DNA from: Kiritimatiellia bacterium
GTDB taxonomy: Bacteria > Verrucomicrobiota > Kiritimatiellia > UBA8416 > JAIOPI01
Assembly: GCA_047615735.1 (NCBI GenBank)
Contig: JBLHHU010000001.1
Span: 1 to 52,203, forward strand
DNA: 52,203 bases
Direction of reading: 5' to 3'
The position numbers and the translations under genes were made by a program. Positions within the stretch are counted from its first letter, which is position 1. Every line of letters starts with the position of its first letter. Shown in pieces: positions 1 through 19,814 of this stretch. The notes below the pieces were generated by a model. The model was not told the origin of the DNA. It saw only the letters and a program-made list of their open reading frames with translations, and did not search any database.

Positions 1-134
1 CTGCTATTCCGCTTGGAGTCCGGTGGGCCCCGCCGGCAGCAGTGCTTGAGCCTTTGCGTCCTTCGCGACCTTCTGTAAATGGGTTTAGATTTTGACGCTG
101 GAAGAGCTTAAGTTAGCGGCATTCGGGACAGACC
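1..134. repeat. Right half of a palindromic interspersed element (copy A, cut by the window edge); direct repeat of 13400-13534
   Basis: Hand alignment gives 121/134 identical to 13400-13534, with the first 61 nt identical. Contains the 30-mer CCTTTGCGTCCTTCGCGACCTTCTGTAAAT (51-80), also present at 13450-13479 and 16300-16329, and GGGACAGACC at 125-134. Confidence 0.85.
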
Positions 135-342
135 ATCAGAGCAAGAGGCGGGCAATGAATGACGGTGCCCGTCGGTAAGGTTTCACCGCACGATTACAAC
201 GACATCAAACGGATCTGTTCCAAAGAGAGCCCCGTATTGCGCACGGGATGTCTTCTGGGGGTGAAATGGCCGGTTTAAGCGTTGATAATAATAAATCTCG
301 GACTTAACTCATTGGGGAAGAACGATTTAAATAGGTTCGACT

Positions 343-394
343 CCGAAAGGTAAGCCCGAAAGGTAAGCCCGAAAGGTAAGCCCGAAAGGTAAGC
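343..394. repeat. Four perfect tandem copies of the 13-bp unit CCGAAAGGTAAGC
   Basis: Units read directly at 343-355, 356-368, 369-381 and 382-394. Intergenic, about 160 bp upstream of the ATG at 556. The unit length is not a multiple of 3. Confidence 0.95.
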
Positions 395-555
395 GTTTAG
401 AATACGAAAAATTTGCACTTAACCAATTAACGTAGAACGACTTACATGGTTTCGACCCCGAAGGGTACTTTTGGTGTTTTTTCGGTTCGATCATTGACTT
501 ACTGAAATAAGAGCCCCATGGTCGGTTTTTCCGAGCTCGGACCAACGAGGACATT

Positions 556-3500
556 ATGAAAATGACATCCAAGCAGTTTGTTTTTTGGCTAATTATGTAC
601 ACGTTGACTATGGGGGGTGGGGCGGTTATGTCTGCCTTTGCCGTTGCGCCCCCGCTCACCGAAGCGTTCTTTGCGGAAACCCTTCCTAGTGGGGCCCACT
701 GGGTCACTACCTCGTCACCTGAGGGGCGAATCGACATCGCTTACGATGATACTGATTCTACAACCCAGCTCGTTCCGCTCTCTATGCCTTCGCCTTCGAG
801 TCAGACAACTGCGGATCTCCACCGGGGGAATTATTACGCGTGCACTACCTCCGGCTCTTTGGTTTCGCAAGGAATTCATCTGGATCGGACCAATGCGGTG
901 AACGTCACTTTTTTCATGTATGAAAGTTCAACAGAAAATGGAACTTATACACTCTTGTCCTCCATCGCGGTAGTTGCGAGTATCGGGACTGGAATCGTAC
1001 AGTCGGCAGCGCTGAACATTCCAATGGTCAGCGGTAAATATTATTTACTCGGGGCTGCATGGGATGCCTCCGCCACCTATTATTACAAAGGGAACTTCCA
1101 CCCCCAGACGATGCCATTGGGTGACACGGTCGGGGGATACACGCTCAGTAGCGCGGCCGCGCCCGCGGCATCACTCGTTGGAAGTCCTTCTACGACGGCG
1201 TATCAACAGGAGGTCACGGTCTCGACCAATCGCGTGGTTCGAATGGACGATACAACCGCTGGGTCATTGACCTCGACCAATCAAATGGACCTGCTTCTGA
1301 ATCTCGAGGATTATACCGATGTGTCGCTAGAATTTCGTCATCGCCAATTAGGAGATGAAGTGCATGCGGGCGACGGCATTTTCTTGAGCGATGACGCCAC
1401 CACGTTCACGCGGGTGTACGATCTGGACTCGGCATCACCGGCCTGGCGGGACATCACGCTGGACCTCGACGCACTGGCCTCGAGCAATGGGCTCGCATTA
1501 ACGTCACAGAGTATCATTCGCTTCCAGCAGGTCGACGATGACGGCTGGCCGTCGGACGGACGGGAGTTCGACGACATTCTCGTTTATTCCGAGCCGGATC
1601 TGTTGTCGGACTCTGTGACATCAGGAGGTTCCTCTTCGATTAAAAAAACCTGGCGCGGATTTTCTTCTGCCAAAACGATTGCATTGAAGCATGACGTCAC
1701 CACCCGCACCGGAATCAGTGCGTTTTCCGAACCCTCGCTGGGATTCGGCTATCGGCTGAAGGATTCAGGCGGAATCGTTCGGCATTCGCAACTCAGCAGT
1801 ACCGCCTGGAACGTGGATGCCATGACGGTTCAAGCCGATACGCGCTTTCCGACGATGGCCATCCCTGGGGCCACCACGTTGCGCGGCCTTAACTATACCC
1901 TTCATGCAACGATCGACCCACAGACAAATGTAACCGAAGCACTGGAAAACAACAACGAAGCCATCATGGACGTGATGGTCAACCACTATTCGGGGTCGCT
2001 CTGGTTCGACAACATTGAGACCCCGATCCTCATCACCGATTGGGGTGTCCGTGTAGCCAATTCGCCCGTCGAGCACTGGATCACTGGAACCGGTTCGCTC
2101 GATGGCGAGGCCTTTGTCTTTGCCAATCTGAAGGTGGAGAAGACCCTGACCTCCCTCGACTACAGCCTTGCTGCAACTGATGCGACGATCATCAATGTAC
2201 CCATTTCGAGGCGCGACGTAGTTAACCGTGTCCATTTTTGGTATAATGGGGGGATTAATCTAAAACATCAGGGAGCCTATGCCGACATCAAGGTCTTGCT
2301 GCCTGCAGGGCTGGGGATTAGTACCACCTCGGCTACAGTGTTGGACCCGACGTATGTGTTCAGCAACCAGAAGCTTTCGCCGACGTTATATCCCTCTAAC
2401 ACGGTTACGAATGTGGGGACGTTTAATGTCGCGGAAGAAACTAAACCGCTACTCTACGACGTGGCAGACATAACATGGGATCCCACTGCGGGAACGTTCT
2501 CATTCGCTAAAACGGATGTAGTATTCGTGCGTGAACAAGAACTGGCGCATATGGAAGCCGAGGCCGCCAACTTCACGAACACGGTGGTGCAGGTGAAAAA
2601 ATCCAACGCGGCGTACTACCGAGGCGTGAGCTCTCTGGAAACGGATCCGCTCGTTGAGGTCGGCTTGAATGGCCAGGCCTTGTTAAGTACGCAGGTCAAG
2701 ATCGACTCAACCGAGATGACCGCTCATTTTCCCTACGGTGTGAGACAAGCGTGGAGCAACGGTTCGGTCTTCGTTATCTCTCAGGACCTGGTGAATAGCG
2801 CCTTGAGCCAGATGGACAGTCCCGCGGATATCGATGTTTTGTATGCCAGCGATTGTAACGAGGTGCTGGACTGTGCCGGAACCGTTGGCCCTATCAATAT
2901 CCCGACTCAGCCGAGCGGACATACCATCGCCAGCATGGATGGCGGGCTACGCACGCAGGTGAGCATCCCTGTCGGAGATGGCGATCTACAGTGGGGCACA
3001 CGTTGGGACAACTCGCCAACCCACACAACCGATGCGTTCGGTACCGGTGCGTTCTATATGCCCGGACACTTTATTCGCGGCGACCTTTCGTCATTCGATG
3101 TCACCGAAAATCGCGGCCCTTCCGAGATTCTGCTGAGCGGGATGCCCTCGAATCTAGCGCCGGCCATGGAGCGTCCGGGCTTAGCCAGCTACGCGGATGG
3201 CCTGGCGGACTATGCCGGGCTCAACTTGCGCGTGGGCTCCGATGGCGCATTGAACGGCGATTCCGTGCTTGGCGGATCCTCGCCGGGCGGGTGGCCACTC
3301 ACAGGGCGCTCGAAATACTACACCCGTCATTCCGGCGTGAGCGGCATCCATGAGGCGGTCTTTGGCCAATTCCCAACGCCCATAACCGTTTATGGCTATA
3401 ATTTCGATGTGTCTAATTTTGGTTTGTCTTACTTGTCCGGAACCCCTGAGGAGTCGCGCTTTAATGCTTCGGTGGATCTTCCGCAACCATCCGATATCAC

Positions 3501-6285
3501 GCTGGCTTTCGAAGAGCTGATGCTCGATTGCCTGGGCGAAATCGGAGACGCCGAACTGGCAAACAATGATTCTAAGAATCTGGCGTATTGGGATGCGGAT
3601 ATTCAGCCGCTGACCCTCTTTTTTGCCTCAACCGCCAGTAGCACTTGTACCAATTCTAATCGCAAGCTCTGCATGGGCTTGACGACGCACTGCGCGAATG
3701 TGGACCAAACGCTATCCGGAATTCTGGCCTTTCTCCCGGATGGCGATCTCGGCTCACCGGCCGATCAGATCGACGGTGTGCCTTCCCGGTTGGCCGTGCC
3801 CAACCGAATCGAACTGGCCGGTCCCGCGGACGAGACCTACTATTTCAATCCTGTTGCCATGCCGTATTACAACGACTATTCGCTCAGTGGCGATGCGCTG
3901 ACCGACCGCGGATGGATTAACTTCGCGGGCAACCTCGATGTCGCCTTTTTCAGCGACCTGCAAGTACAGTTTCACACCAGCGCCAGTACGAACAGCGCCA
4001 TTGCCAATATTTATATGATGGGCGGTTGGGAAAGTGCCGCGCAAACGTTTTTCAATAGTGATCCCGACGACTTTGATACCGAGAATGCAGGCTTCCCATC
4101 CGCGTCCCTAGCAAGCTATGGCGACTACCGTTCCCCGAGCAGCGACACCTATCGAACCCATGCTCTCCGAACGTGGCTGGGCGTGGTGGATTTCGACTAC
4201 CCCCTGGAATGGTCCTCTGCCTCCAAATCGTTCAAGTCTCCGGAGGAAGTGCATGTCGACCTGATGGTGATGAATGTCGAGCACCAGACCGATTACCTCA
4301 GCGCGGAGAATGCCGAAATCTCCTTCGGCGTGCAGTACGATGGACTACCGCAGGTCAACCTTGCCAACATGGCGTTTAATGCAATTGATGAAGCCACAGG
4401 CATGGCTTCCGCGTTTGGCGATGCTGTCGGCGATGCGGTCCGTGACACCATTGATTCCGGTGTCTCAGCCTTGGATGATACCCTCGCCGATGTGCCGGAA
4501 ATGCTGTTTGATCCGTTGTTTGAGAAAGTACTCGATCCTGTGATTGATGATTTCTACGAGATGCTGAACAACGCTTATATCGCAACGCCGGGTTCCAACT
4601 ATTACAGCACTGTGGTGACCCAATATATTCACGGGATAATCGGAGACCCCTACGGAAACGTGGATCACATCCTCAAGAACCTCGCCAACGGAACGGGTAT
4701 GGCCTCGGATATCGCCGATGAAATCGATGGTAATCTGGAACAGGTTGAAGCCCTTTTGAATGCCTTTGTCGGTATTGTTTCAGAAACAAACGGCGTCGCG
4801 CTTCCTGCTGCGCTTCCCGGTCTGCTCAATGTAGATGGTGGCGATTACGATGTTCTTGTGGATCTAGGGGTTGGCCTGCTCTCCGTGCTGGCGGACACGC
4901 TCTACGATTCTCTTAGCAGCACGATTGAAGCGGAACTCAACGGCGTTCTTTCTGAAGCGGCTCCGAGTTTAGAGGCGATTAGCGATATCATGCAGGAACT
5001 GCTTGTGGTTGTGGGTGATGTGCGAACCAGTCTGGCGGCGGCGGGATCCATGCTCGAGGAACTGGATGATATTCTTAATACCACGGCGTTGAACGACCCC
5101 CTTGGAGAACTCTCCCGCGAAATCGACCAATGGTTCGCCGCGCTGCCGACGGATGGCGCGACGTTTGATGAATATACGGCAGATGAGATCAAGCAGATGC
5201 TCCGGCAGAAAATCACAGATACCTTTTATGCCTCGGTTCCTTGTGCCGAGGTGCAGCAGGTGGTGCGCTCGCAGCTCTACGAAGTGGATGCCGCCATTCA
5301 GGAAACCATCGATAGCGCCTTCCAGCAGTTGAACAAAGCGCTGCGCGATATCGCTAGCGAATACTTGAACGGGATCGATGATTCGATAAACGATATGCTG
5401 GGCGATTTATCGAATATTATGGGTGCCGGACAGATCGACGGTTATGCGCATATTCGCCACGACACCCTCACGGAGCTACGCCTGGATGGCAAGTTCCAAT
5501 GGGAAGTTCCGGACGCGATGGAATTCAATGCCTATCTCATCATTAAGCAACTCGACTCTGATGCCGCCGGCGGTTGCGGCGTGGTGGGCGAAGTGTTGCC
5601 GGAAGTTACCGTTGGGACCGAAGGCTTCGGTATCTCCTGGCTGGAATCCAGCATCAAGGCCGACATCGCGGCCAAGTTCGCCTTCATGGTCGACGCCCAT
5701 GGCACGGTCGAACTGATCGGTCTGGCAGGATCGTTCGAATTGGTTGAAGGCGAAATTGGCTTTGACTCCTTTGGGATCACTGAATTCTATGCCGCGGTCG
5801 CACTGGGCCAACTGGAAAACTATCTTTCCGCGAACCTGCGCTGTTCCTTCACCAGCTATGAGGTCGAAGGAGGTGCCTTCTTCGGTAAAGCGTGCTCTCT
5901 CGATCCTTTCTCTTGGGATCCGGATGTACAGAGCGTCTTAGGCGACCCGCCTTTCACCGGGGTCTATGTCTATGGGGAAGGGTGGATGCCGATCGTCGAC
6001 TTCGGCTGCCTCTTCCAGGTGAAGGCTGGCGTGGGTGCGGGCATTTTTGCCTTCGTTGATGGACCGGTTGGCGGGAAAATCTTCCTTGGCGTGGAGGGTG
6101 AAGCGCTTTGTGTGGTCGGGGTTGCTGGCGAGGTTACTTTGGTGGGCCTGAAAGATGGAGATGATATGCGCATGACCGGCAAAGGGCGAATTTCCGGCCG
6201 TGTAGGCGCATGCCCATTTTGCGTCAAGTTTGGCAAAACGGTGACTCTCACCTATGACAATGGAAACTGGGACGCCGATTATTAA
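556..6285 (+). CDS. Giant secreted protein 1 (1909 aa), function unknown
   Basis: Uninterrupted 5.7-kb ORF with GAGG 5 nt upstream of the ATG. Signal-like N-terminus (FVFWLIMYTLTMGGGAVMSAFA). Long acidic helical stretch and a Gly/Val/Cys-rich C-terminus. No catalytic motif recognised. Confidence 0.85.
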   Translation: MKMTSKQFVFWLIMYTLTMGGGAVMSAFAVAPPLTEAFFAETLPSGAHWVTTSSPEGRIDIAYDDTDSTTQLVPLSMPSPSSQTTADLHRGNYYACTTSGSLVSQGIHLDRTNAVNVTFFMYESSTENGTYTLLSSIAVVASIGTGIVQSAALNIPMVSGKYYLLGAAWDASATYYYKGNFHPQTMPLGDTVGGYTLSSAAAPAASLVGSPSTTAYQQEVTVSTNRVVRMDDTTAGSLTSTNQMDLLLNLEDYTDVSLEFRHRQLGDEVHAGDGIFLSDDATTFTRVYDLDSASPAWRDITLDLDALASSNGLALTSQSIIRFQQVDDDGWPSDGREFDDILVYSEPDLLSDSVTSGGSSSIKKTWRGFSSAKTIALKHDVTTRTGISAFSEPSLGFGYRLKDSGGIVRHSQLSSTAWNVDAMTVQADTRFPTMAIPGATTLRGLNYTLHATIDPQTNVTEALENNNEAIMDVMVNHYSGSLWFDNIETPILITDWGVRVANSPVEHWITGTGSLDGEAFVFANLKVEKTLTSLDYSLAATDATIINVPISRRDVVNRVHFWYNGGINLKHQGAYADIKVLLPAGLGISTTSATVLDPTYVFSNQKLSPTLYPSNTVTNVGTFNVAEETKPLLYDVADITWDPTAGTFSFAKTDVVFVREQELAHMEAEAANFTNTVVQVKKSNAAYYRGVSSLETDPLVEVGLNGQALLSTQVKIDSTEMTAHFPYGVRQAWSNGSVFVISQDLVNSALSQMDSPADIDVLYASDCNEVLDCAGTVGPINIPTQPSGHTIASMDGGLRTQVSIPVGDGDLQWGTRWDNSPTHTTDAFGTGAFYMPGHFIRGDLSSFDVTENRGPSEILLSGMPSNLAPAMERPGLASYADGLADYAGLNLRVGSDGALNGDSVLGGSSPGGWPLTGRSKYYTRHSGVSGIHEAVFGQFPTPITVYGYNFDVSNFGLSYLSGTPEESRFNASVDLPQPSDITLAFEELMLDCLGEIGDAELANNDSKNLAYWDADIQPLTLFFASTASSTCTNSNRKLCMGLTTHCANVDQTLSGILAFLPDGDLGSPADQIDGVPSRLAVPNRIELAGPADETYYFNPVAMPYYNDYSLSGDALTDRGWINFAGNLDVAFFSDLQVQFHTSASTNSAIANIYMMGGWESAAQTFFNSDPDDFDTENAGFPSASLASYGDYRSPSSDTYRTHALRTWLGVVDFDYPLEWSSASKSFKSPEEVHVDLMVMNVEHQTDYLSAENAEISFGVQYDGLPQVNLANMAFNAIDEATGMASAFGDAVGDAVRDTIDSGVSALDDTLADVPEMLFDPLFEKVLDPVIDDFYEMLNNAYIATPGSNYYSTVVTQYIHGIIGDPYGNVDHILKNLANGTGMASDIADEIDGNLEQVEALLNAFVGIVSETNGVALPAALPGLLNVDGGDYDVLVDLGVGLLSVLADTLYDSLSSTIEAELNGVLSEAAPSLEAISDIMQELLVVVGDVRTSLAAAGSMLEELDDILNTTALNDPLGELSREIDQWFAALPTDGATFDEYTADEIKQMLRQKITDTFYASVPCAEVQQVVRSQLYEVDAAIQETIDSAFQQLNKALRDIASEYLNGIDDSINDMLGDLSNIMGAGQIDGYAHIRHDTLTELRLDGKFQWEVPDAMEFNAYLIIKQLDSDAAGGCGVVGEVLPEVTVGTEGFGISWLESSIKADIAAKFAFMVDAHGTVELIGLAGSFELVEGEIGFDSFGITEFYAAVALGQLENYLSANLRCSFTSYEVEGGAFFGKACSLDPFSWDPDVQSVLGDPPFTGVYVYGEGWMPIVDFGCLFQVKAGVGAGIFAFVDGPVGGKIFLGVEGEALCVVGVAGEVTLVGLKDGDDMRMTGKGRISGRVGACPFCVKFGKTVTLTYDNGNWDADY

Positions 6286-6304
6286 GATTCAACGAGAGAG
6301 AACT

Positions 6305-9300
6305 ATGATGAATTTGAATCCGAAGTGGATCATTGTCTGCGCGGCACTGGCTCTGGTGCAACCGTTGGCAGAGGCGCAGGACCAGGGCATAGGCGACATG
6401 ATGTTCACCGCCGGAACGGTGGCAACCGGTGCCGTGGGGGATGAATGGGGGTGGGTTCAGTGGATGGCCACGGATAGCTCGCTGCTCAAGGATCGTGCCA
6501 TGGATCTCTACATGAAGGATGGTCACATGCCTTCCACAAACCTATTTTCACTGAAGGGCGTGGCTCGTCAGGTCACCGATCCGCGAACGATCAGCCTGTT
6601 ATTGAGCCGCGGTGAAGCCCTCGGCGATGATTTGAGTATGTTGGAAATGTCGGTGGACTCGCTTTATGCCGGGGCGGAGCCCGTTGGTTCACTTTCGTTG
6701 GCAGAAAAGCTGGCCGCTCTAATCAGCGGTTCGCAGGACGATCCCGAGCTTTATCGGAATCTGGTATTGATGGGCCGTTCCCATTCGTCCGTCGCCATGA
6801 CGATTGGCCATGGTTTTTTCGCCCGAATTCCTTCGAGCGGATTTTCCACATTCGAAATTCGCGACCACGATACGAATGAAGTGATTGGCCGAGTGGTGTT
6901 GGAGGGTGGTGTGCCGATAGTACTCCCTGCTCCGGGCCCGATTGTGCTTGTCCCCGAAACAAGTCCCAAGGGAAATCTGAATATTCGCCTGCGCTGGGAT
7001 ATTCCCGACACGCTCAAGCGTGCTTCACTGCTTCAGTTCGGCTACAACCTCTATCGTATGGATCAGGACTTTGCTGGCGGTTTGGGCTTCGACACCACGC
7101 CGCCGACCGCCACCGAAATAGGGGGCTTGGTCTCCAATAATACGGAGGTAGTTCAGGTCAATCGCATGCCGATTTTGGTTGATGAAAATGCCCCCTGGTT
7201 TGCCGTGGATGATAACGAAGGGCTTTCCGGCGGAACGCCCTTTGAGGATGGAACGAACTACTACTATTTTGTCTCCGCGCTTGATCTGCTCGGGCGCGAC
7301 GGGGATCTTTCGGACGGATTCCAAACCTTCCCGTGCGACCGTTTCGCACCATCGGTTCCCTATGATGTGCGCACGCGCACCATTTCCGGTTATTCGAGCG
7401 GAACCAATACGCAATGGGTCGAGGTTTCGTGGGCGCATAATACCAATGACGCCGATACGGCGGGCTATTATGTCTACCGCCATACCAGCATGGCTGATAT
7501 GCAGAGCAACGCGGTCTCGGACGTCGCCAACCGCATCGCGGGTCCGATCAGTGTAACCAATGCCGTCCGAATGTATTATGAAGACCATTCGTTGACCTCC
7601 AATGACTGGAGTCGAACCTATTGGTATACCGTCCGCGCAGAAGATGACGCCAGTTGCGGCAGTAACCTTTCAGGCAATAGCGCCCCGGCCTATGGGCTCC
7701 TTAGAGACTGGGAAGGGCCACCTCTGGCCACCGGGGTCGTGGTGACCATTCAGGGCGAGATCCCCGAGACGACGTACCATTCAACCATTCCGCTGGGATC
7801 GCCAGATCCAGAGAATATCCGAATCATTTGCCAGCTAAAAAATCCAGGCCTTCCGATCGCCTGGGCACAGTTTGGTTGGCACGGCGGTGTCTATGGCGGC
7901 GCTGGGTCCGAAACGAATATCTATACATCCAGCAAGTTCTATTTTTCAGAGGGCATCGACAAGGTGGGAAAAGACGCTCTTATAAACACCCCGCCGGGTC
8001 AGAATGAAAGCTGGTTCACTTTCTACTGCCGCGTCGGTAGTTACGGTGGAGCGGTTAGCGAGTGGGCGCATTTTTCTGATGTTCCATCGGATAGCGTCAA
8101 ACGAAAATATACGTTTGAGGGCGATATTCGATTGGATGCAATTCTGATTCCAGGCGGGGCAACGGGGACGCTAGCGGGGCCCCATATCTGGGGCCCGGGA
8201 CCCACCAACATCAACCCGGTTTTGACCATTCCTGCAGTTGTTGGCGCCGAGACCGTGCGCGTCTACCGACGGGTGGATAATGGGCCTCGTACCTTAATTC
8301 ACCAAGGGGAGATGGATGAAATCCTGGGCGCCGTCATTACGGATTATACGGGCGGTTCAGTGAATGGCGGAAGCATTTGCTACTACTACCAGTTGTTCGA
8401 CGTACATGGAAATGCGGGGCCGATGGTGAATATTGGTTGTATCGCGATTGCTCCGCGAGTTGACCTGCCCACCCCCTTCCTTGAATCCATCGATTCAACT
8501 GGCACGGCGGTCTTATCGCCGGGCTTGGGTTTAGAATGGTTCTGTACCACGCCGGGTGTCGAACGTTTCGAAGTGGCTGTTGCATTGGATGAAAATGGAC
8601 CACCATCCACCTTTGGAACGCCGGGGTACGCGCTCGATGGGCTGGCCAATGATCTCGACGTGGTCGTTGAAGGGGTCACCAATACCTTGGACTTTGGTTT
8701 TTATCGTACCGGTCGTGTGGGCACGACGTTTGGCGTGGCAGGTTCGCCGCTGTTCTCGCTCAATAGCCTCGTTAGCTTGAATCGAAACTACACCGTCATG
8801 GTCCGCGCCATTGGTGTAGCCGGGACGCTGGGCCCATGGAGCAATGTTGAATCGTTCCGGTGGAATACCGTTCCGACCCTCGGGCCAGAAGTGCCGTGGC
8901 CAGCTCGGCCGATGCCGACCATTCAGTCTACCAAATTCCATGCCGATATGGAGGCGGTCTTCATTGATGGAAGCTATGTCTATAGCAATGGAATCGATCA
9001 TGTAGGAATCCGCATTGGCGAAATTCCTTCGAATAATAATGATGTGAATGAAATTGATCGCTTCGAACTTGAGCTTTATTACGTTGGCAATCCCATGGAC
9101 TACCTCTATGGCAACGCGGTGATGACCAACCAAACCGTTTTCCCCTGCGTACTTTATCGCTACCAATTGACGAACGACTTGTATCAGGCGGTGAGCGGTG
9201 ATGTAGCGCAGGTGTCGCCGTTGATGGAGGATATCGCCTACGCCGTCAATGGTGTCGTTGCCACCGTGTATGATCCATTCATTGGGATTAACAAAAAAGA

Positions 9301-9448
9301 GAACGAGGATCCGTCGTGGGGGATCTACCTGATTGATACGCAACCCGTGGTGCGTGGTGCACGCTATCAATATTTGCTAATGCGCTTTGATCAACAGACC
9401 AAGGAGCTGGATCGTGTTATTTCAGCTGGAACGGTCACAATTCCATAA
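6305..9448 (+). CDS. Giant secreted protein 2 (1047 aa) with FN3/Ig-like repeats, function unknown
   Basis: The ORF track opens at 6254, but the ATG at 6305 precedes a typical signal peptide (MMNLNPKWIIVCAALALVQPLAEAQ) and lies 19 nt after the upstream stop. FN3-like signatures are WVEVSW..YYVYR..YWYTVRAED and NYTVMVRAIG..GPWSN. Confidence 0.85.
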   Translation: MMNLNPKWIIVCAALALVQPLAEAQDQGIGDMMFTAGTVATGAVGDEWGWVQWMATDSSLLKDRAMDLYMKDGHMPSTNLFSLKGVARQVTDPRTISLLLSRGEALGDDLSMLEMSVDSLYAGAEPVGSLSLAEKLAALISGSQDDPELYRNLVLMGRSHSSVAMTIGHGFFARIPSSGFSTFEIRDHDTNEVIGRVVLEGGVPIVLPAPGPIVLVPETSPKGNLNIRLRWDIPDTLKRASLLQFGYNLYRMDQDFAGGLGFDTTPPTATEIGGLVSNNTEVVQVNRMPILVDENAPWFAVDDNEGLSGGTPFEDGTNYYYFVSALDLLGRDGDLSDGFQTFPCDRFAPSVPYDVRTRTISGYSSGTNTQWVEVSWAHNTNDADTAGYYVYRHTSMADMQSNAVSDVANRIAGPISVTNAVRMYYEDHSLTSNDWSRTYWYTVRAEDDASCGSNLSGNSAPAYGLLRDWEGPPLATGVVVTIQGEIPETTYHSTIPLGSPDPENIRIICQLKNPGLPIAWAQFGWHGGVYGGAGSETNIYTSSKFYFSEGIDKVGKDALINTPPGQNESWFTFYCRVGSYGGAVSEWAHFSDVPSDSVKRKYTFEGDIRLDAILIPGGATGTLAGPHIWGPGPTNINPVLTIPAVVGAETVRVYRRVDNGPRTLIHQGEMDEILGAVITDYTGGSVNGGSICYYYQLFDVHGNAGPMVNIGCIAIAPRVDLPTPFLESIDSTGTAVLSPGLGLEWFCTTPGVERFEVAVALDENGPPSTFGTPGYALDGLANDLDVVVEGVTNTLDFGFYRTGRVGTTFGVAGSPLFSLNSLVSLNRNYTVMVRAIGVAGTLGPWSNVESFRWNTVPTLGPEVPWPARPMPTIQSTKFHADMEAVFIDGSYVYSNGIDHVGIRIGEIPSNNNDVNEIDRFELELYYVGNPMDYLYGNAVMTNQTVFPCVLYRYQLTNDLYQAVSGDVAQVSPLMEDIAYAVNGVVATVYDPFIGINKKENEDPSWGIYLIDTQPVVRGARYQYLLMRFDQQTKELDRVISAGTVTIP

Positions 9449-9469
9449 TTTAAGAGTGGAGATCCTGTG

Positions 9470-12400
9470 ATGAAAAAAATATTCCTTTTGCTGCTTTTCT
9501 GCGGGGTACTTGGCTCTCACGCAGATTTTGTCTATCGATCCGGGACGTCGTTTCTGACGACGGGTGACCTGGATGGCGACGGGCGTTCGGATCTGGTGCT
9601 GGTGGACGGCTTAAACGCCACCGTGCGCGTTGGCTACCAACTTTCCGCCACGAACCTGACGTGGGCGGCTGCCCGCCCACTTGGTTTGGCTGAAGTGACG
9701 GACATAAACTGTGGGTCGGTTAAGTCTAACGCGTACGACTCGATCATTGCCACCGCTCCTACGCTCAACCGACTGAACATGTATAATGCAGGGTCCGCGA
9801 ACACGATCCTTTCCCCCGAAGCAATTTATATGAATGGAACGGGCCCGTATTCGCTGGCTACGCTGGATATCGGCGGGGTGGGGAATACCGCCCAGGATGA
9901 TATTGTTATCATCACCACGCTCAACGGAAGTAGCCCACACAAGATGGAATACATCCGCTCGCAAGGGACGTCGTTTAGCTCGCTGGGGAAGGTGGGAATT
10001 GGGTCGGCTTGGTGGCACCTTAATGCAATCGAATATGCGTTAGGGATAGAAGGGTTGGCGGTGGTCGATGCCCTTTCTTCTGGATTTCTTCGCATCTATG
10101 ATTTTTCTTCGGGTTCATACAGCAACAAGGCCTCCGTTTCTACGTCAGGGATCACTCAACCCCATTATGTTTCATTCCTATTGCCGTCGGGCGAAGCCCA
10201 TTTTGTACTTTGGGAAAAGGGAAGCTCCACCATTCGAACGACCACGCTAAAGAACGCAGGGGCCATCTATTCCTTTTCCTCGCTGTCGGACTACGACCTG
10301 CTCACCCCCGTGGATTCCATATTCCTCGTGCAAGGTGACGGAACGAACCGGCTCGCGGTGGTTTATTCGGGGGGATCCTCCGTGGGAATTTTTGATCACG
10401 ATGGCTCCGGTGCACCCATTTCCTTGCAAACCCTGGTCACGTTGCCGGGCGAACGGTTTGCCGGATTTCTTCCCCTCGATACCGATAACTTCATGGCACT
10501 CTCCTCTGGTTCCGGTGATCTGTCCGGTAGCATCACCGCCGATCAGCATCACTTTGCCGGCGGGCTATTTTCATCCGTTGGAACTGTTGCGCTTCCCGCC
10601 CCACCGCCCGGAGGAGGAGCGGCTAACGTGATGACCTTTGTCGGCGAACCTTTGGTCGACAGCGCGCCGCAACGACTGCAACTTCTACGGGCAGGGGACT
10701 GGTCGACCGCAGTGACGCTCGGCGTCGGGGTGCAGGCCACTTATGAAACGGATCGCGGCTGGGAGCAAGGTTTGGGGGACCCAACGGTTGGAGATCTAGG
10801 CTCCCCCGCGACGAATGCAGCCTATACACTCGACAACCAGTTTCATCGTGCAATTTCCATCCACAGCTTTGATGCCGCCCGCGGAGAAGAGGTCGCGGTG
10901 ATTCAAATTTCGCCCGATCCTGGGACCTATGGAACGTCGGTAGAGGTCTCTCTTTCGGCCACCCCAGCGTCCACACTGTATTATCGCCTGGATGCGTCCA
11001 GCGGCTGGAGCATCTACGCCGCTCCCTTTACAATTTTTGCCGATGTCAATGTACAGTACTATGCCCTTTCGGGGGCAAAGAATTCGATCATCCGATCCGC
11101 CGCCTATCGATTCAGCGATGCACCTTCCGATCTGGACTCCGATGGCGACGGCATTCCGGACTATGTTGAACTGGCCAACGGGCTCGACCCCGCTGAAAGC
11201 GGTCTTGATTCCGACGGTGACGGCTATTCGGACCTCGACGAATTATTGGCCGGAAGTTCCCCGACGAATGTCGCCGCAATTCCTCTCAGCAGCAATCGTG
11301 TTGAACGCGCCGCGGTCTACGATCAAGTCCTCACTCCGCGCGCCTACGACGGTATTGCCGATACCACCAAGAACAGTGCAATTGGGACGCAGGTTCGCCT
11401 CTTTTCTGCATCCGGCGCGCAGGTTGGATATGCCGAAACGACGAATCTCACCATCGCCGTAGCAAGCACCAATCCGGCCGCCATTTTTGAGGCCGTCGCG
11501 TTGTCGCTCGAGCCGCCATTCACCACAGCGCTTACTGAAACCCGTTTTGATGTCGACGGCACCTTTTCTGGCAATCAGTACGGCATTGAATTGCTCGGAA
11601 TTTATTTGCAGCCGGATCCCGATGCGATCAGCGTGGACTACGCCTATCAAGGCGGCGTGCTTGCCACGGAGGCCAGCGCTTGGTTGGCCGCCGCGCAGGA
11701 CGTCTACACCAACCAGGTACGAACCGTCCAAGTGGCCGACCTCAGCCTGACCAATACGGTCGCCGCCATGTTGGTGGAGCGCAAGCTCGCCAACCTGCTG
11801 CTGGACCGAGGCACGCTCACGAATGGATGGGTATCATTGTTTAAAGGCCGGCCGGGCGACGCCGCCATGCAAGGGCTGTCTTCGTCCGATATCCAATCGC
11901 TTGAAAACATAGGCTCCGGCAGCGAGCCCGCCTATCTCGTCCCGTCACTTGTCTTATCCATCTTCCAAGAGGTGCCTGCGTTGGCCGAACTGCTGGAACT
12001 CACACAGGATATCTACGACCTCCGTAGCGATTACGGTAGCGTCTCTAATAATGTCGGAAAATATCCATTGCCGGTCGATGTGCTGCGTTCGTTTCTCTAT
12101 ACGGGCGATGTGCACTCCAACTATCTAGCGCATGCCTCGATCAGTCCTGCCGAGGTGTCCCTTGCCTACGCTGAAGCCACCCAAACGCTCGCGCAAGTAA
12201 CGGCCCGACCGGTTGGTAGTTTTACGTTGCTCGTACGCTCAAACTCGTTTACGTCTACCTGCCCGGTGCTTTACACGCTCGGTGGAACCGCCAAGAGCCT
12301 CTATGTCGATTCCGGTAACGCGTTCCGCTTCCCGCTGACCTTTACCCTCCAGCCGGGTGCGGAAGTGAGTGTCGATGCGTTCACCGATCGGGATTGGAAT

Positions 12401-12856
12401 CTCTGCCCGGGTACCGACCCGCTGGAGGTCATTTCACTCGCGCTCACGGCAGTCCCGACGGCCTCCGGAATCGATGCGGATGGCAACTTGTTGCCGGACG
12501 CGTATGAAGAAATGTTTCTCGTCGGTAGTGGTGGGTTGGCGACCTCTGACCTCGACGGCGACGGGTGGAGCGATCTTCAGGAATATCTCGACGAAACCGA
12601 TCCCGACGATGCAACGCTACATGGCGTAGTCATAGCCGATCTCAGCCCGCCGGTCATTTCGCTAGACAGTTCCGACTTGTTGATCGATTGGCCGGAAGCC
12701 TATGCCGCTGATTTTATTTTTACCGTTGAGTACACCGAGGCCCTCAATTCGGATCCCTTTGTGGCAGATCAGGAACTGCCCATCGGCGACCTCGGCGTCA
12801 CACTCGACCTTGCCGCCGGCAAAAGCTTTTATCGCGTCATGATCCGCCTGCGGTAG
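9470..12856 (+). CDS. Giant secreted protein 3 (1128 aa) with FG-GAP/VCBS-like, Ig-like and thrombospondin-type-3-like Ca-binding repeats
   Basis: GGAG at 9458-9461 lies 8 nt before the ATG at 9470 (GTG at 9467 is an alternative start). Signal peptide MKKIFLLLLFCGVLGSHA. Motifs: DLDGDGRSDLVLVDG; ISPDPGTYGTSVEVSL..LYYRLD; DSDGDGIPDY; DSDGDGYSDLDE; DLDGDGWSDLQEY. Confidence 0.85.
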   Translation: MKKIFLLLLFCGVLGSHADFVYRSGTSFLTTGDLDGDGRSDLVLVDGLNATVRVGYQLSATNLTWAAARPLGLAEVTDINCGSVKSNAYDSIIATAPTLNRLNMYNAGSANTILSPEAIYMNGTGPYSLATLDIGGVGNTAQDDIVIITTLNGSSPHKMEYIRSQGTSFSSLGKVGIGSAWWHLNAIEYALGIEGLAVVDALSSGFLRIYDFSSGSYSNKASVSTSGITQPHYVSFLLPSGEAHFVLWEKGSSTIRTTTLKNAGAIYSFSSLSDYDLLTPVDSIFLVQGDGTNRLAVVYSGGSSVGIFDHDGSGAPISLQTLVTLPGERFAGFLPLDTDNFMALSSGSGDLSGSITADQHHFAGGLFSSVGTVALPAPPPGGGAANVMTFVGEPLVDSAPQRLQLLRAGDWSTAVTLGVGVQATYETDRGWEQGLGDPTVGDLGSPATNAAYTLDNQFHRAISIHSFDAARGEEVAVIQISPDPGTYGTSVEVSLSATPASTLYYRLDASSGWSIYAAPFTIFADVNVQYYALSGAKNSIIRSAAYRFSDAPSDLDSDGDGIPDYVELANGLDPAESGLDSDGDGYSDLDELLAGSSPTNVAAIPLSSNRVERAAVYDQVLTPRAYDGIADTTKNSAIGTQVRLFSASGAQVGYAETTNLTIAVASTNPAAIFEAVALSLEPPFTTALTETRFDVDGTFSGNQYGIELLGIYLQPDPDAISVDYAYQGGVLATEASAWLAAAQDVYTNQVRTVQVADLSLTNTVAAMLVERKLANLLLDRGTLTNGWVSLFKGRPGDAAMQGLSSSDIQSLENIGSGSEPAYLVPSLVLSIFQEVPALAELLELTQDIYDLRSDYGSVSNNVGKYPLPVDVLRSFLYTGDVHSNYLAHASISPAEVSLAYAEATQTLAQVTARPVGSFTLLVRSNSFTSTCPVLYTLGGTAKSLYVDSGNAFRFPLTFTLQPGAEVSVDAFTDRDWNLCPGTDPLEVISLALTAVPTASGIDADGNLLPDAYEEMFLVGSGGLATSDLDGDGWSDLQEYLDETDPDDATLHGVVIADLSPPVISLDSSDLLIDWPEAYAADFIFTVEYTEALNSDPFVADQELPIGDLGVTLDLAAGKSFYRVMIRLR

Positions 12857-13183
12857 ATGGCAATACCACATTCTTCGTGACGTTCTGGCGGGCGCTGACC
12901 TCCTTTGAGGCGGGAACGGCCGATTTTGCGGATTTTATCATTGGTGCAATCGTACACATCACGCTGCGACCACCCATACATTTGATAAGAGAGCCGCGAT
13001 GCACGCAGATTTCGAACTTTTCGGGACGTGAATGGAAAACGGATAGAAGGTCTGTCCCGTGTCTCTGTTTTCCGCTACGGATGAGATTCCGACAGCTTAT
13101 GGCGCCGCCAGTCGCATTTAATCGGTCTCGCCCCTCGATAACGAATACCCGGTCTTTCGGCCGAAGCGGTTCTCAACGAAAAA

Positions 13184-13534
13184 GGGACAGACCCGAATGC
13201 CGCTAACTTAAGCCATTCGCGCATGGTGACTACGGCACTGTTAAGAATTTTACAGAAGGTCGCAAAGGACACGAAGGAAAGAACCCTCCTTCGCGCTCCG
13301 CGCTACGGCGGGCAAGCCGGCGGAGCCCAGCCTGCCACGGCGTAGCCGCGAAGCGCGAAGACGGGCCGAGCTCCAATATTGGAGCGCTTGACCCTGTCCC
13401 TGCTATTCCGCTTGGAGTCCGGTGGGCCCCGCCGGCAGCAGTGCTTGAGCCTTTGCGTCCATCGCGACCTTCTGTAAATCGTATTAGAATTTGACGCTGG
13501 AACCCCTTAAGTTAGCGCCATTCTGGTCTGTCCC
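13184..13534. repeat. Complete copy (B) of a ~350-bp nested palindromic interspersed element
   Basis: Outer arms 13184-13212 and 13506-13534 are complementary at 27/29. Inner arms 13248-13276 and 13450-13479 are about 26/29. A perfect 16-bp palindrome GCTCCAATATTGGAGC sits at 13370-13385. The right half (13400-13534) repeats window positions 1-134. Confidence 0.85.
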
Positions 13535-13561
13535 TGTAATCGCGTGGGGCCGTCGTCGCGG

Positions 13562-14372
13562 TCACGGGTACAGCGCCGGATGCACCAGCTCGACGAAGTG
13601 TTGAGAATGTCGAACCCTGACCCTAATCGTCGTCGAAAGCCCCTGGTGGAGCCGGTGTCCATCGGCGTAATGTTTCGGGTAGATGTTCTCGTACTTTACC
13701 GACCACCAAAGCCTCTCAATAAATACGTTATCCAAGGCGCGGCCTCGGCCATCCATGCTGATTGGGATCTCACGTCCAAGCAGTTCTCCTGTGAACTCAC
13801 CGCTTGTGAACTGGGAGCCCTGATCTGAATTGAATATCTCCGGGCGGCTGTGGCACAGAGCTGCGAGCAGCGCCTGAATGCAAAACGAAGAGTCCATTGT
13901 GTTCGAGAGCTGCCAAGACAAGACATAGCGGCTGTACCACTCGATGACCGCAGCCAGATACATGTAGCCTTTCTTCATCGGCACGTATGTGATGTCGATA
14001 CTCCAAACCTGATTCACCCGCTCAATCTCCACATTACGCAGCAAATACGGGTATATCTTGTGCCCGGGGGCTGGCTTGCTGGTGTGAGGGCCAGGTGTGA
14101 GGGCCTGTATCCCCATCACGCGCATTAGCCGCTCAATGCGCTTGTGGTTCGCCATGTGCCCTTGGTCATGCAACCCAGTCCGTCATGCGCGGAGAACCGT
14201 ATTCAGGGCGCTTCAGGTACTGCTCATCGTTGAGGCGCATCAGCAACAGATCCTCGGGGTTCACCGGAACCGGGTTGTACTGTGCCGTGGAACGCGGGAT
14301 GCCTGCCAGTTGACATTGCCGACGCAGTGAGATCTGGTGGTCTTCCACGACCCAACTACGGCGCGTCGTCAA
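13562..14372 (-). pseudogene. IS3-family transposase OrfB (DDE/rve integrase), frame broken near 14166-14175
   Basis: The N-terminal piece ends ..RPEYGSPRMTDWVA-stop (stop at 14166-14168). The sequence continues in another frame as (L)HDQGHMANHKRIERLMR. DDE-type motifs present: WSIDITYV, FNSDQGSQFTS, ERLWWSVKYE. One single-base indel would restore a contiguous OrfB. Confidence 0.75.
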
Positions 14373-14380
14373 TGGCAGGC

Positions 14381-14665
14381 TTAGAGCTTTTTTTTAAGCC
14401 ACTGCAGATCCATCTGCAGCCTCCCAATTTGCTCGTAGAGTGGCGCTGTCAATTCCTCTTCGCTCTTGCCGCCGCCACGACTGCCGCTGGCGAAAAGATC
14501 TGCGGCATTGGACTGAAGAAGTTTCTTCCATGCGCAAATCTGGCTCTGGTGCACACGATGCTCAGACGAGAGCTGCGCAAGCGTCTTCACCCCTCTGATC
14601 GCGTCAAGCGCCACTTTTGCCTTGAAACTGTCCGAATGATTCTGTCTCTGTTTTCCCATTTGCAT
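14381..14665 (-). CDS. IS3-family transposase OrfA
   Basis: 94-aa ORF with a strong AAGGAGG upstream of the ATG at 14665. Typical OrfA tail ..LYEQIGRLQMDLQWLKKKL ending in the slippery run. Confidence 0.85.
   Translation of the reverse strand: MQMGKQRQNHSDSFKAKVALDAIRGVKTLAQLSSEHRVHQSQICAWKKLLQSNAADLFASGSRGGGKSEEELTAPLYEQIGRLQMDLQWLKKKL
14388..14395 (-). other. Programmed -1 ribosomal frameshift slippery run (A8 on the coding strand) at the orfA/orfB junction
   Basis: The coding strand reads CTT AAA AAA AAG CTC TAA. The OrfB frame is the -1 frame and opens immediately after a TAA that precedes the A-run, as in IS3-family elements. Confidence 0.7.
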
Positions 14666-14800
14666 CCTCCTTGACTACCATATTTCGGATGCAAACTCTC
14701 TCTTAAGGGGTGGCCGGATTTCGGGGGGAACCGCACTCGTCCTCGGAGCGCAGCGCAGCGACCGGCTTGTTTTTCGAGAACGAGGGACGAGGACGATGAA

Positions 14801-14829
14801 TTGACAGTAACCGTCTGCAGCCCTAGTGT
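14801..14829 (+). promoter_or_regulatory. Candidate sigma70-type promoter of the M20 peptidase gene
   Basis: TTGACA (14801-14806), a 17-bp spacer, then TAGTGT (14824-14829), about 50 nt upstream of the ATG at 14880. Motif match only. Confidence 0.35.
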
Positions 14830-14879
14830 CAGAGCGCTAAACAGGTGGTTTTAGCGTGTAAGTTTTATCAGGAGAGTAC

Positions 14880-16238
14880 ATGAGCGTTTTGGATGAGAGT
14901 TTCGAGACCGACAAAGAACGTATTTTAGAAGAATGGAAGACGCTGCTTTCATTTCCGAGCATCAGTACCGACAGCACGCATCACCCCGACTGTCTCGCTT
15001 GTGCCGATTGGCTTCGTGATCACTTGAACGGCATTGGCTTTCAGGCCGAACTCCTCGAAACGGACGGCAAACCTGTCGTTTTTGCTGAACGTCAAGGTGC
15101 CGAAAACGCGCCGACGATTCTGTTCTACGGCCATTACGATGTTCAGCCGGTCGACCCCGTTGACGCATGGGACAGCCCGCCATTCACACCGACGCTCGTC
15201 GATGGGCGTATGGTTGCGAGAGGTGCCCAAGACAACAAAGGACAGCACTTCTATGTGCTAAAAGCCCTTGAACATCTCATTAAGGCAGAGGCACTGACGC
15301 CAACCGTTAAAGTTTTCCTCGAAGGCGAAGAAGAATGCGGCAGCACGGGCATCACCGCCTGCATGCCGGGTTGGAAAGACAAACTCAAATCGGATATTCT
15401 GTTGGTCACCGACCTGGGCATGACGTCCCCCACCCAACCCACCTTGACGATGAGCCTGCGTGGCATCATCCACATGACCGTCGAACTATCGGGTCCGCGC
15501 ACCGACCTCCATTCTGGGATGCATGGCGGATTAGCCCCCAACCCTGCCACGGCTATGTGCCGTTTGCTTGCCTCCCTACACAACGACGACGGTAGCATTG
15601 CTGTTTCGAACTTTTACGACGGCATCCAGCCTATCAGCCCAACAGAGAAAACGCTCGCCGACGCGATGGCTTTTGACGTCGAAACATACAAACGCAACAC
15701 TGGCGTAGAACCAGTCGGCGGTGAAGCAGACAAAACACCTGTTGAACGTCTCGGACTCAGGCCTGCGCTGGATTGCAATGGTGTGCATAGTGGCTTTAAC
15801 GGCGAAGGTTCAAAAACCATCATCCCTGCACACGCGCGCGCGAAACTAACAGCACGTATTGCCGCTGGGCAGGATCCACAGACGTGCCTCGCTGCCCTCA
15901 TAAATCACCTGCATAGCCATTCACCCAAAGGCTTAACCCTGAAAATTTCAGACGAAGGTGTCGGCGGTGTCGGGCTGCGACTGGACCCAGCAAGCGAACT
16001 CATTTCACGAGGAAAAACGATCGCCGATACACTGACGGACAACGAGGCTGTTTACCGCTGGGAAGGTGCATCCATTCCCGTCATCGCCGATCTGGCTGCC
16101 GTCGCCGAAGCCGAGCCGCTCATGGTTGGATTCGGATGCGAAGAAGACAACATTCATGCACCCAACGAATCGTTCTCGATCGAACGCTTCCACATGGGAT
16201 ACACTTTCGCCAAACGCTTCTTCCAAAGTTTCGACTGA
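14880..16238 (+). CDS. M20-family metallopeptidase/dipeptidase
   Basis: AGGAGAG upstream of the ATG. Family motifs GHYDVQPV, ARGAQDNKG and EGEEECGS. Confidence 0.85.
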   Translation: MSVLDESFETDKERILEEWKTLLSFPSISTDSTHHPDCLACADWLRDHLNGIGFQAELLETDGKPVVFAERQGAENAPTILFYGHYDVQPVDPVDAWDSPPFTPTLVDGRMVARGAQDNKGQHFYVLKALEHLIKAEALTPTVKVFLEGEEECGSTGITACMPGWKDKLKSDILLVTDLGMTSPTQPTLTMSLRGIIHMTVELSGPRTDLHSGMHGGLAPNPATAMCRLLASLHNDDGSIAVSNFYDGIQPISPTEKTLADAMAFDVETYKRNTGVEPVGGEADKTPVERLGLRPALDCNGVHSGFNGEGSKTIIPAHARAKLTARIAAGQDPQTCLAALINHLHSHSPKGLTLKISDEGVGGVGLRLDPASELISRGKTIADTLTDNEAVYRWEGASIPVIADLAAVAEAEPLMVGFGCEEDNIHAPNESFSIERFHMGYTFAKRFFQSFD

Positions 16239-16240
16239 CA

Positions 16241-16334
16241 TTAAGAATTTCACAGAAGGGCGCGAAGGCCGGAAAGTCAAGACAGACGAGGAAGGCTGCC
16301 CTTTGCGTACTTCGCGACCTTCTGTAAATGATTT
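16241..16334. repeat. Short palindromic copy (C) of the TTCTGTAAAT/ATTTACAGAA repeat family; candidate bidirectional terminator between convergent genes
   Basis: The left arm TTAAGAATTTCACAGAAGGGCGCGAAGG pairs with the right arm containing the 30-mer CCTTTGCGTACTTCGCGACCTTCTGTAAAT (16300-16329). Sits between the M20 stop (16238) and the mutS stop (16334). Confidence 0.75.
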
Positions 16335-18835: not shown

Positions 18836-18935
18836 GAGATCTATACTTCATTCAAGAGTCGCAAAATTGGTTCAAACGTTGATCAACGATCAGATCCTAC
18901 TTTAGTGAATCAGATCAAAATTCCGATGCGAAATT

Positions 18936-19814
18936 TCAAGCATCGCCATTTTCTACACCCGCCAAAAAAGCTGTGATGCGAACCCAAGCCTCTGGACTTA
19001 TCGCTTCTGGTCGACTGCTTTCGTCAAGCCCCAGTGATGTTAACAAGGCCGCGAATTGTGGCAATCGTGATGCATCCCAGTCAGTATATCGCTTCAATAT
19101 CGTCCCAATCTGTTTACGACGCTGCGAAAAAGCATGTTTCGTAAACCCATAAAACATTTGGGCATGCTCGGCAACCAAAGGTGCATTGTCGTGTCTTTCG
19201 AGCCCCGCAATGGCCGATTCCACATCCGGCGGCGGCCAGAAACAGCGCGCGCCAATCCGGTGTTCCAGGCGCGTCGCGTATGCCTGCTGGGCCCACACGC
19301 TCAACAAACCGTAGGCCGACGTGCCCGCTGCTGCGCAGATTCGCTGCGCCACTTCGCGTTGGAGGGTCACGACAATACGGTCGGGTCTGTATTGCGACTG
19401 AATCATGGCAACCAACATACGCGTCCCCGACGAATAGGGTAAATTCGCGACCACTTTTCGAATGCGAAAATCACCATTCGGATCAAACAGGGTGTCAAAA
19501 TCCTGGTCAAGACCGTCGCCATGTATCAGCGTAAGCTCAGGCGTGTCGCAGAATCGCTTCGCCAGAAATGCATGCAACTTCCGATCCAACTCAACGGCAT
19601 GAACCTGCGCACCCGCGCCAAGCAGGGCTTCGGTCAAGATGCCAAGACCCGGTCCAATTTCGAGAACGTGATCGCCTTGGCCAACATCTGCCCGCTCAAT
19701 CGAAATGCGAGAGACGTTGCGGTCGATCAAGAAATTCTGACCAAGGCGAGTACTTGGACGTATGCCCAATTCCGTCAATGCGGCGCGTACCTCTGAAGGA
19801 CTGCCCGTGTTCAC
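18936..19814 (-). CDS. rsmA: 16S rRNA (adenine1518/1519-N6)-dimethyltransferase RsmA/KsgA
   Basis: LGQNFLIDRNV plus SAM-binding VLEIGPGLGILT. The GTG start overlaps the upstream stop (GTGA). Confidence 0.93.
   Translation of the reverse strand: MNTGSPSEVRAALTELGIRPSTRLGQNFLIDRNVSRISIERADVGQGDHVLEIGPGLGILTEALLGAGAQVHAVELDRKLHAFLAKRFCDTPELTLIHGDGLDQDFDTLFDPNGDFRIRKVVANLPYSSGTRMLVAMIQSQYRPDRIVVTLQREVAQRICAAAGTSAYGLLSVWAQQAYATRLEHRIGARCFWPPPDVESAIAGLERHDNAPLVAEHAQMFYGFTKHAFSQRRKQIGTILKRYTDWDASRLPQFAALLTSLGLDESSRPEAISPEAWVRITAFLAGVENGDA

Follow-up and report, generated by a model that had tools for sequence, protein, structure and literature searches.

IS1397 and ISKpn1 are insertion sequences (ISs) that insert next to or into repeats of the repetitive extragenic palindrome (REP) type. 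For the REP-associated tyrosine transposases (RAYTs) and their REPIN repeats, the signature is a Y1 transposase gene that is flanked by its own repeat in inverted orientation (PMC3337134, PMC5581495). The IS200/IS605 enzyme family is treated in PMC6006769, and insertion into REPs is also known from ISPpu9 (PMC8450116). Here we describe a family of hairpin-forming repeats in the DNA of a Kiritimatiellia bacterium (GenBank assembly GCA_047615735.1, contig JBLHHU010000001.1). The stretch analysed, called the window, is one whole contig of 52,203 bp, in which two copies of the element, A and B, stand on either side of an operon of three giant genes. Our best explanation, to which we give a probability of roughly 70%, is that the element is a dispersed hairpin repeat similar to miniature inverted-repeat transposable elements (MITEs) and REPINs and not the border of a cassette, that a Y1 enzyme is the likeliest candidate for mobilising it, and that the contig starts at an assembly break.

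The initial annotation of the window had reported direct repeats of 134 nt around the operon, with 121/134 identities and the first 61 nt identical. This was borne out by a gap-free alignment of window positions 1-134 and 13400-13533, which lie in the same orientation (blastn E 1.7e-49, excluding a chance likeness); the identity was 61/61 over the first 61 nt and 60/73 over the remaining 73 nt. An inverted copy of the 134-nt sequence was found at 13183-13285. The contents between the repeats had also been described correctly: a 13-bp tandem repeat in four copies (343-394), three long open reading frames (ORFs) and 543 nt of non-coding DNA (12857-13399, given as about 550 bp), with an IS3-family element directly behind the downstream repeat. 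The last 216 nt of this non-coding DNA are the left arm and the centre of the downstream element.

The left half of copy A, which had been said to lie out of sight, was recovered by extending the sequence upstream of position 1, a check that the initial annotation had proposed. Contigs related to the window are named L001, L002 and so on; L001 is a longer contig of the same strain, found by an exact match to the gene 1 protein. It reaches 4,617 nt to the left of window position 1, and its positions 4618-19102 correspond to window 1-14485 at 99.99%. A complete element, A_full (L001 4389-4748), is present there, of which window 1-124 (plus strand) is the right arm and the 228 nt in L001 4389-4617 are the left arm and centre. 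L001 4390-4744 matched window 13172-13526 at 96%. Each 134-mer is the right arm of an imperfect palindrome of 350-360 nt. Over the left arm, the centre and the part of the right arm up to its nucleotide 61, A_full and B are identical at 286/289 positions, and beyond that at 60/73, showing that the true direct repeat is about 360 nt and not 134. The right arm of A agrees at 132/134 positions with the copy that is resident in the relatives (R). Judged by their sequences, the element copies are mosaics of one another, and recombination among them has happened.

Copy B (13184-13534, plus strand) is a complete element, recognised by its palindrome, its fold and its absence from six relatives. It is an imperfect palindrome of 351 nt and consists of the 10-mer GGGACAGACC (13184-13193), the left arm, a GC-rich centre, the right arm (13400-13524) and the inverted 10-mer GGTCTGTCCC (13525-13534). 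Folded as single-stranded DNA, window 13170-13550 gave -100.5 kcal/mol, compared with -64.9 +/- 4.2 for shuffled sequences (z -8.6). The known copies are three upstream of the operon, one downstream, a short hairpin relative and two at unrelated loci, and at least six insertion sites of the family were counted in the reachable DNA. Upstream in L001, A_full abuts the copy A2 (4095-4388); another 1.1 kb upstream comes copy C (2738-3021), which is shorter. The short relative (16243-16337, plus strand) holds only the inner parts of both arms, matches the right arm at 31/32 nt and occupies the space between the M20 peptidase gene and mutS, which are convergent (DNA fold -23 kcal/mol, z -5.1). The two copies at unrelated loci (L031 8984-9266 and L032 1374-1700) were obtained by a protein-database search with concatenated element-derived ORFs, which gene callers had placed across copies (3 matches); their gene contexts are unrelated, and the copy in L032 abuts the stop codon of an epimerase gene.

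In an alignment of seven copies the arms were about 100 nt long, with the ends GAATGSCRCTAASTTAAGC... and ...GCTTAASTTAGYGSCATTC, and the overall length ranged from 260 to about 390 nt. The length variants arise in the GC-rich centre by the gain or loss of whole stem-loops. Every copy forms one long hairpin, and a consensus hairpin of 95 predicted pairs was mostly kept across the seven copies. Compensatory changes were seen in 4 of the 95 pairs, a covariation that is too sparse to argue for selection on structure. No consistent ORF was found in the element, only short and inconsistent ones.

Searches with Rfam returned nothing credible, neither for the whole window at the gathering threshold nor for the upstream region at E<=10, and a structured-RNA family was set aside on these grounds. 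A 20-mer from the left-arm core had 12 matches of 20-37 nt among the GTDB representatives (one genome per species), all of them generic GAAGG-rich hairpins in unrelated phyla and none a copy of the element. A 20-mer from the centre gave two chance matches and no copy in metagenome contigs of the Joint Genome Institute, and two 21-mers had no match in the viral contigs of IMG/VR. Promoter and terminator scans gave no informative signal. The element appears to be restricted to this lineage. Integron attC sites were rejected, as no intI lies nearby and the elements are far larger, and CRISPR or prophage att sites were rejected for want of supporting genes. The GAAGG-rich hairpins among the matches (L006, L008, L009, L013 and L014, from Kapaibacterium, Phenylobacterium and Planctomycetaceae) are intergenic and made of periodic 9-nt units of the type CACGAAGGN; the inner stem of the element resembles them.

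Every end of the element was found to abut the 10-mer GGGACAGRCC or its complement GGYCTGTCCC, and GGGACAGRCC lies within a longer motif with the consensus CTGATGGYCTGTCCCTT. The boundary 10-mers are direct in four copies (A_full, R, C and L032) and inverted in two (B and L031). A direct duplication of 10-11 nt was seen in three to four of the six copies and is clear in A_full, R and C. A_full and R both read AAAAA-GGGACAGACC-element-GGGACAGACC-ATCAGAG; for copy A the right-hand 10-mer with the following ATCAGAG occupies window 125-141 (plus strand), and the same 10-mer stands at the left end of the copy in L001 4402-4411, a direct duplication of 10 nt. The filled site of copy C reads TGA-TGGCCTGTCCC-260 nt-TGGCCTGTCCC-TTTTG. 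A solo boundary motif, GAAGGTCTGTCCCGTG, is located at 13041-13062 (plus strand) and is carried by the relatives too.

Occupied and unoccupied sites were compared between close strains. L024, from a strain 96.6% identical, is without copy C and has the unoccupied site TGATGGCCTGTCCCTTTTG at the exact place, with the 11-nt TGGCCTGTCCC single instead of duplicated. Directly upstream of the operon, L024 and L025 have one copy, whereas the window's strain has two in tandem. In six contigs from strains that are 97.5-98.7% identical (L025-L030), the homology to the window stopped at 13173, about 10 nt before copy B. An unoccupied motif, AAGGGACAAGCCTTCTGAGCAAG, is present at this breakpoint, and beyond it the six contigs carry different genes (an APH/EcKL-type kinase, an inositol monophosphatase and others) and neither copy B nor the IS3 element. 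On this comparison of alleles, the element is gained and lost between very close strains, at one motif. That it is a dispersed non-coding element, recently mobile or recombining, and not a cassette border, is very likely.

Two further observations were made in L024. The empty C site has an extra 11-nt tandem duplication (CTTTTGTTTCC), and positions 299-716 hold nested and truncated upstream copies that are not in the window's strain, among them a short copy cut by an inverted copy that lacks the left arm.

The same motif was met again at a transposase locus. Four other assemblies, found via the M20 peptidase, match the window only from 14736 rightwards. L035 and L036 begin at the equivalent of this base, and L033 (from its position 7857) and L034 (from 78) run leftwards into arrays of the motif and not into IS3. 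L033 comes from the same genome as the window (99.99% over 9.5 kb from window 14736), and its arrays lead on to a gene for a Y1_Tnp protein of 334 residues (L033 6237-7241). Array 1 (4112-4201) has three units of 29 nt, AAAAATTCCAAGGGACAGGCCATCAGGAA, and precedes a truncated duplicate of the Y1 gene with 72 residues, which is followed by a XerC/XerD-like integrase of 421 residues and then by array 2 (6082-6144), two units of the same 29-mer upstream of the intact Y1 gene. Array 3 (7434-7856) lies downstream in the opposite orientation, with six units of about 58 nt that each contain GCTGATGACCTGTCCCTATTTC. Every unit carries CTGATG(G/A)CCTGTCCCT, the motif that bounds all element copies and marks the empty sites. 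The repeats are therefore inverted on both sides of the transposase gene, as expected for a RAYT.

The Y1 protein scored 52.9 bits with Pfam Y1_Tnp (cut-off 23). Its best NCBIfam match was REP-associated tyrosine transposase (59.3 bits, E 3.6e-16), with IS200 at 30 bits, and it has an HFH motif and the tyrosine motif YIDLNPVRAGLV. The protein cluster has four members, some of them on 42-kb contigs, and a sequence search of the PDB with the Y1 protein gave no match. The region L033 4071-6240 looks like an integrase-bearing insertion that cuts one Y1 copy at its HUH codons.

Taken together, we infer that the element would be mobilised in trans, now or recently, into the motif CTGATGGYCTGTCCCTT, and that the likeliest enzyme would be the RAYT-like Y1 (HUH) transposase with 334 residues that this genome encodes. 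If it worked as in the IS200/IS605-REPIN model, the DNA would be cut 3' of the 10-mer, both at the left flank and at the right end of the element. Joining the freed element 3' of a different 10-mer would give an apparent duplication, and excision would leave an intact motif behind. Such a Y1 enzyme, which would cut 3' of the 10-mer much as IS200/IS605 enzymes cut at their short target, would account for the choice of target, the seeming duplication and the empty sites that are found intact. For this enzyme as the driver of the element the odds are slightly below even. More tentative is the wider proposal of an active REPIN-like system outside Proteobacteria, in which a long RAYT-like Y1 enzyme would move a conserved 350-nt hairpin, as one strand or the other, into a motif of 17 nt that is not a palindrome, with cleavage 3' of GGGACAGRCC; we place it at about one chance in three. 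In this view the element copies are selfish or structural DNA of intergenic regions; along with an IS3, they have built up in the spacers around an operon that is passed on vertically. The downstream copy sits at a strain-specific rearrangement point.

Several observations weigh against our best explanation. The inverted 10-mers at B and L031 are not predicted by simple insertion and would need a second step, such as recombination between copies. The filled site B has an extra CAACGAAA and two substitutions compared with the empty allele and is not a clean insertion. At the junction of A2 and A_full the right arm of A2 is truncated, which a second insertion at the same target would not give, and an identical 20-nt sequence, CAACGAAAAAGGGACAGACC, precedes both A_full and B. 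These four features point to recombination or conversion between copies besides insertion. Copy B itself may be a recombinant joint, since it sits exactly at the strain-specific synteny break. The Y1 protein is under the NCBIfam cut-off (59 vs 80 bits) and twice the usual length. The array units are non-palindromic, with folds like those of shuffled sequences (z -0.6 for the 29-nt and +0.2 for the 58-nt units), unlike canonical REPs, which are imperfect palindromes of 20-40 nt; the 17-nt motif is without dyad symmetry. No full element flanks the Y1 gene, and the XerD-like integrase of the locus could act on the motif instead. The copies examined number only six to eight.

The terminal inverted repeats, the small size and the missing ORF would equally be expected of a classical MITE of a DDE transposon; a transposase encoded elsewhere would recognise the terminal inverted repeats (GAATGSCRCTAASTTAAGC) and make target duplications of 10-11 bp with a strong preference for GGGACAGRCC. 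The arms of about 100 nt, the direct duplication at three or four of six copies (11 nt at C, 10 nt at A) and the clean empty site of C in L024 agree with it. This origin is nevertheless unlikely, as no autonomous element that shares these ends turned up in about 150 kb of related contigs, the ends of the IS3 next to copy B are unrelated, and the duplication is missing from B and L031, the two copies with inverted 10-mers; the strict target specificity and the target arrays around the Y1 gene fit the Y1 model better. Less likely again is that the motif is the core of a tyrosine recombinase such as the XerD-like integrase, with the apparent 10-mer duplication as the core shared by attL and attR and the inverted cores produced by inversion. 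The integrase does lie between two motif arrays in L033, and site-specific recombination typically leaves a shared core between specific flanks, with the core inverted in some cases. By inspection, however, the motif lacks the dyad symmetry usual in tyrosine recombinase sites, and the integrase, whose 90% cluster holds one protein only, appears to be part of an insertion that interrupts a duplicated 5' Y1 fragment and may be a passenger. A functional host sequence, that is a structured RNA or DNA (terminator, mRNA stabiliser or regulator) spread by duplication and kept by selection, would account for the very stable fold, for the pairs kept across the seven copies with some compensatory changes, and for the short derivative that lies between convergent genes like a bidirectional terminator. 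We consider this improbable, a shade more so than the recombinase core: there is no Rfam match, the copies are present or absent between near-identical strains and are nested, in tandem or truncated, the boundary motif and the duplication are hallmarks of insertion, and the covariation is too sparse to show selection.

The initial annotation had favoured yet another reading: an accessory cassette with the two direct repeats as its ends, between which homologous recombination would remove, duplicate or swap the operon. The part of this claim that concerns the substrate held, as 289 nt in direct orientation at 99% are ample for RecA-dependent recombination; the mosaic copies and the tandem pair at one site show that copies do recombine, and the IS3 and the synteny break adjoin the downstream copy. 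The outcome did not, as no deletion or duplication of the operon was seen. Comparison with relatives, another proposed check, turned out against a cassette: the operon is present with the same upstream DNA in all contigs of the lineage that reach upstream (L024, L025 and L028), with or without copy B, only the DNA beyond copy B differs, and in close relatives the operon was found neither absent between conserved flanks nor in new contexts. The six close relatives carry it without the downstream copy and the IS3, and in four distant genomes it has no flanking repeats at all. The cassette is unsupported because the repeats belong to a dispersed family, relatives lack copy B, the operon is conserved without repeats and its composition is flat, and we hold it to be the least probable of the alternatives.

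The operon (556-12856, plus strand) was defined by its ORFs and their homologues. The three genes (556-6285, 6254/6305-9448 and 9467/9470-12856) encode proteins of 1909, 1047 and 1128 residues, all with N-terminal signal peptides; Pfam gave only weak matches to CHB_HEX_C_1 and TSP3, in gene 3. Gene 1 has about 25 full-length homologues at 28-96% identity with a graded fall, and the named ones are all from Kiritimatiellales or Pontiellaceae; the homologues of gene 3 showed the same pattern. Four genomes of these groups keep the three genes together in conserved order and size (gene-1 identity 67, 60, 55 and 46%). Around the operon in these four genomes neither the flanking repeats nor the element were found, and the neighbours differ in each. 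A tblastn search of the window ORFs against the four Kiritimatiellales loci found no shared housekeeping genes, hence no calibration of the divergence. The GC content is flat across the window, with the operon not different, and in tetranucleotide usage the operon is as close to the remainder of the contig as the parts of that remainder are to one another; these correlations are low for all 12-kb pieces (0.25-0.5) and show only the absence of an anomaly. The MutS of the window and the operon both point to Kiritimatiellia. Apparently the operon is a lineage-typical, vertically inherited module, and the accessory origin proposed for it found no support. A tRNA-Gln(CTG) predicted by ARAGORN inside gene 1 (5678-5754) is almost certainly a false positive.

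The initial annotation had allowed that the contig might begin at a repeat-induced assembly break, and this was supported by independent contigs that end in copy A. An element copy is where four assemblies break off, and for three of these, the window, L002 and L028, it is copy A. L002, from another sample, ends at the same base as window position 1, and L028 ends 31 nt further in. L003 starts within the 13-bp tandem repeat and ends within the left arm of copy B, and L001 ends within the IS3. Position 1 is an assembly break inside an element copy, where short-read assemblers break. The tandem repeat itself (CCGAAAGGTAAGC in four copies, 343-394, plus strand) is located about 160 nt upstream of gene 1 and is polymorphic: in L002 the distance from the shared start to gene 1 is less by 13 nt, as three copies would give, and the 97% relatives have a single copy (L025 about 905-925).

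The IS3-family element that abuts copy B (13536-14735, minus strand) was identified by matches to rve, HTH_21 and HTH_Tnp_1. Its orfA of about 94 residues is followed by an A8G slippery site, and orfB is split into 60 and 197 residues, compared with 285 residues in relatives from the 90% cluster. The element ends with ...CCGCA at 14735; terminal inverted repeats and a target duplication were searched for and none was convincing, and a look-up of OrfB returned only the same contigs. The members of the 90% protein cluster sit on many short contigs, the right neighbour is the M20 peptidase in the window and a fn3-domain gene in L002, and the join of IS3 to M20 at 14735/14736 was not reproduced in any other assembly. 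For these reasons the IS3 is taken to be multi-copy and a pivot either for real rearrangement or for misassembly. The window contig may be chimeric at 14735/14736, or it may represent a minority structural variant.

The metagenome-assembled genome (MAG) with L033 is labelled 'Candidatus Promineifilaceae' (Chloroflexota) at NCBI (MFT7487622.1, MFT7487620.1). A transfer across phyla was rejected, as the MutS of the window clusters at >=90% with Kiritimatiellia MutS and two sulfatase genes fit as well; the label is probably a binning error. The homologues of the operon are all from Kiritimatiellales, unlike this label. The two sulfatase-family genes (43731-45305 and 49314-51536) and a glycoside 3-dehydrogenase-like gene (40381-41733) fit a Kiritimatiellia lifestyle of polysaccharide degradation. 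A second repeat family was noticed as a perfect inverted repeat of 52 nt with an 88-nt spacer (27421-27472 / 27561-27612, intergenic); one of its arms recurs at 98% in a different locus of a related strain (L025 16016-16066), beside a GGGACGGGCC 10-mer.

The giant-gene operon as a repeat-bounded mobile cassette was a false lead, and position 1 is an artefact of assembly. Elements of this kind together with the IS3 fragment MAG assemblies and create ambiguous joins. As a finding on the operon the result is ordinary, and as a repeat family it is of modest interest. Filled and empty sites together with a sharp boundary motif and a candidate enzyme nearby are rare for REP-type elements, where movement is mostly inferred. 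If the REPIN-like activity is true, the chemistry of transposition and the role in local rearrangements could be read from natural populations, with sites segregating among strains that are 97-98% identical.

Among the described systems, the ISs that target REPs resemble this locus in that an IS3-family element lies exactly at the outer end of copy B; here there is a single junction of this kind, with a degenerate IS copy for which no target duplication was identified. The elements ERIC/IRU and Correia and the MITEs share the size class, the long terminal inverted repeats, the non-coding and intergenic nature, internal indel variants, a target duplication and variability between strains. The difference is that a cognate autonomous IS sharing the ends was not found here and that the target is chosen with much greater specificity than typical MITEs show. 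For the palindrome-associated transposable elements (PATEs), which are derived from IS200/IS605, mobilisation in trans by a Y1 enzyme has been proposed, insertion occurs 3' of a fixed target that is kept at the left flank, and structure is important, as suggested here. The target of our element is at least 10 nt, whereas that of PATEs is 4-5 nt, and the whole element is one palindrome and not a pair of different subterminal hairpins.

The REPINs or bacterial interspersed mosaic elements with their RAYTs (Bertels & Rainey, PMC3116915, PMC3337134; PMC5581495) are alike in being non-coding, intergenic and able to form long hairpins, in the Y1/HUH gene with RAYT-type motifs and the family motif inverted on both sides of it, in a Y1 gene that appears to be low-copy and on long contigs, and in the occurrence of singlets, doublets, tandem or nested clusters and excision or insertion polymorphism. 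The family described here differs by a boundary motif of 17 nt that is no palindrome, by a conserved body of 260-390 nt in place of a doublet of about 90 nt with a free spacer, and by a motif that is mostly direct, like a 10-11-nt target duplication, and not inverted. Motif arrays, and no whole elements, stand on either side of its Y1 gene, the protein has 334 instead of about 170 residues and remains below the cut-off in NCBIfam, and the host belongs to Kiritimatiellia and not to Proteobacteria. In conclusion, this is an undescribed intergenic repeat family of a poorly studied phylum, similar to MITEs and REPINs, with a putative link to a RAYT.

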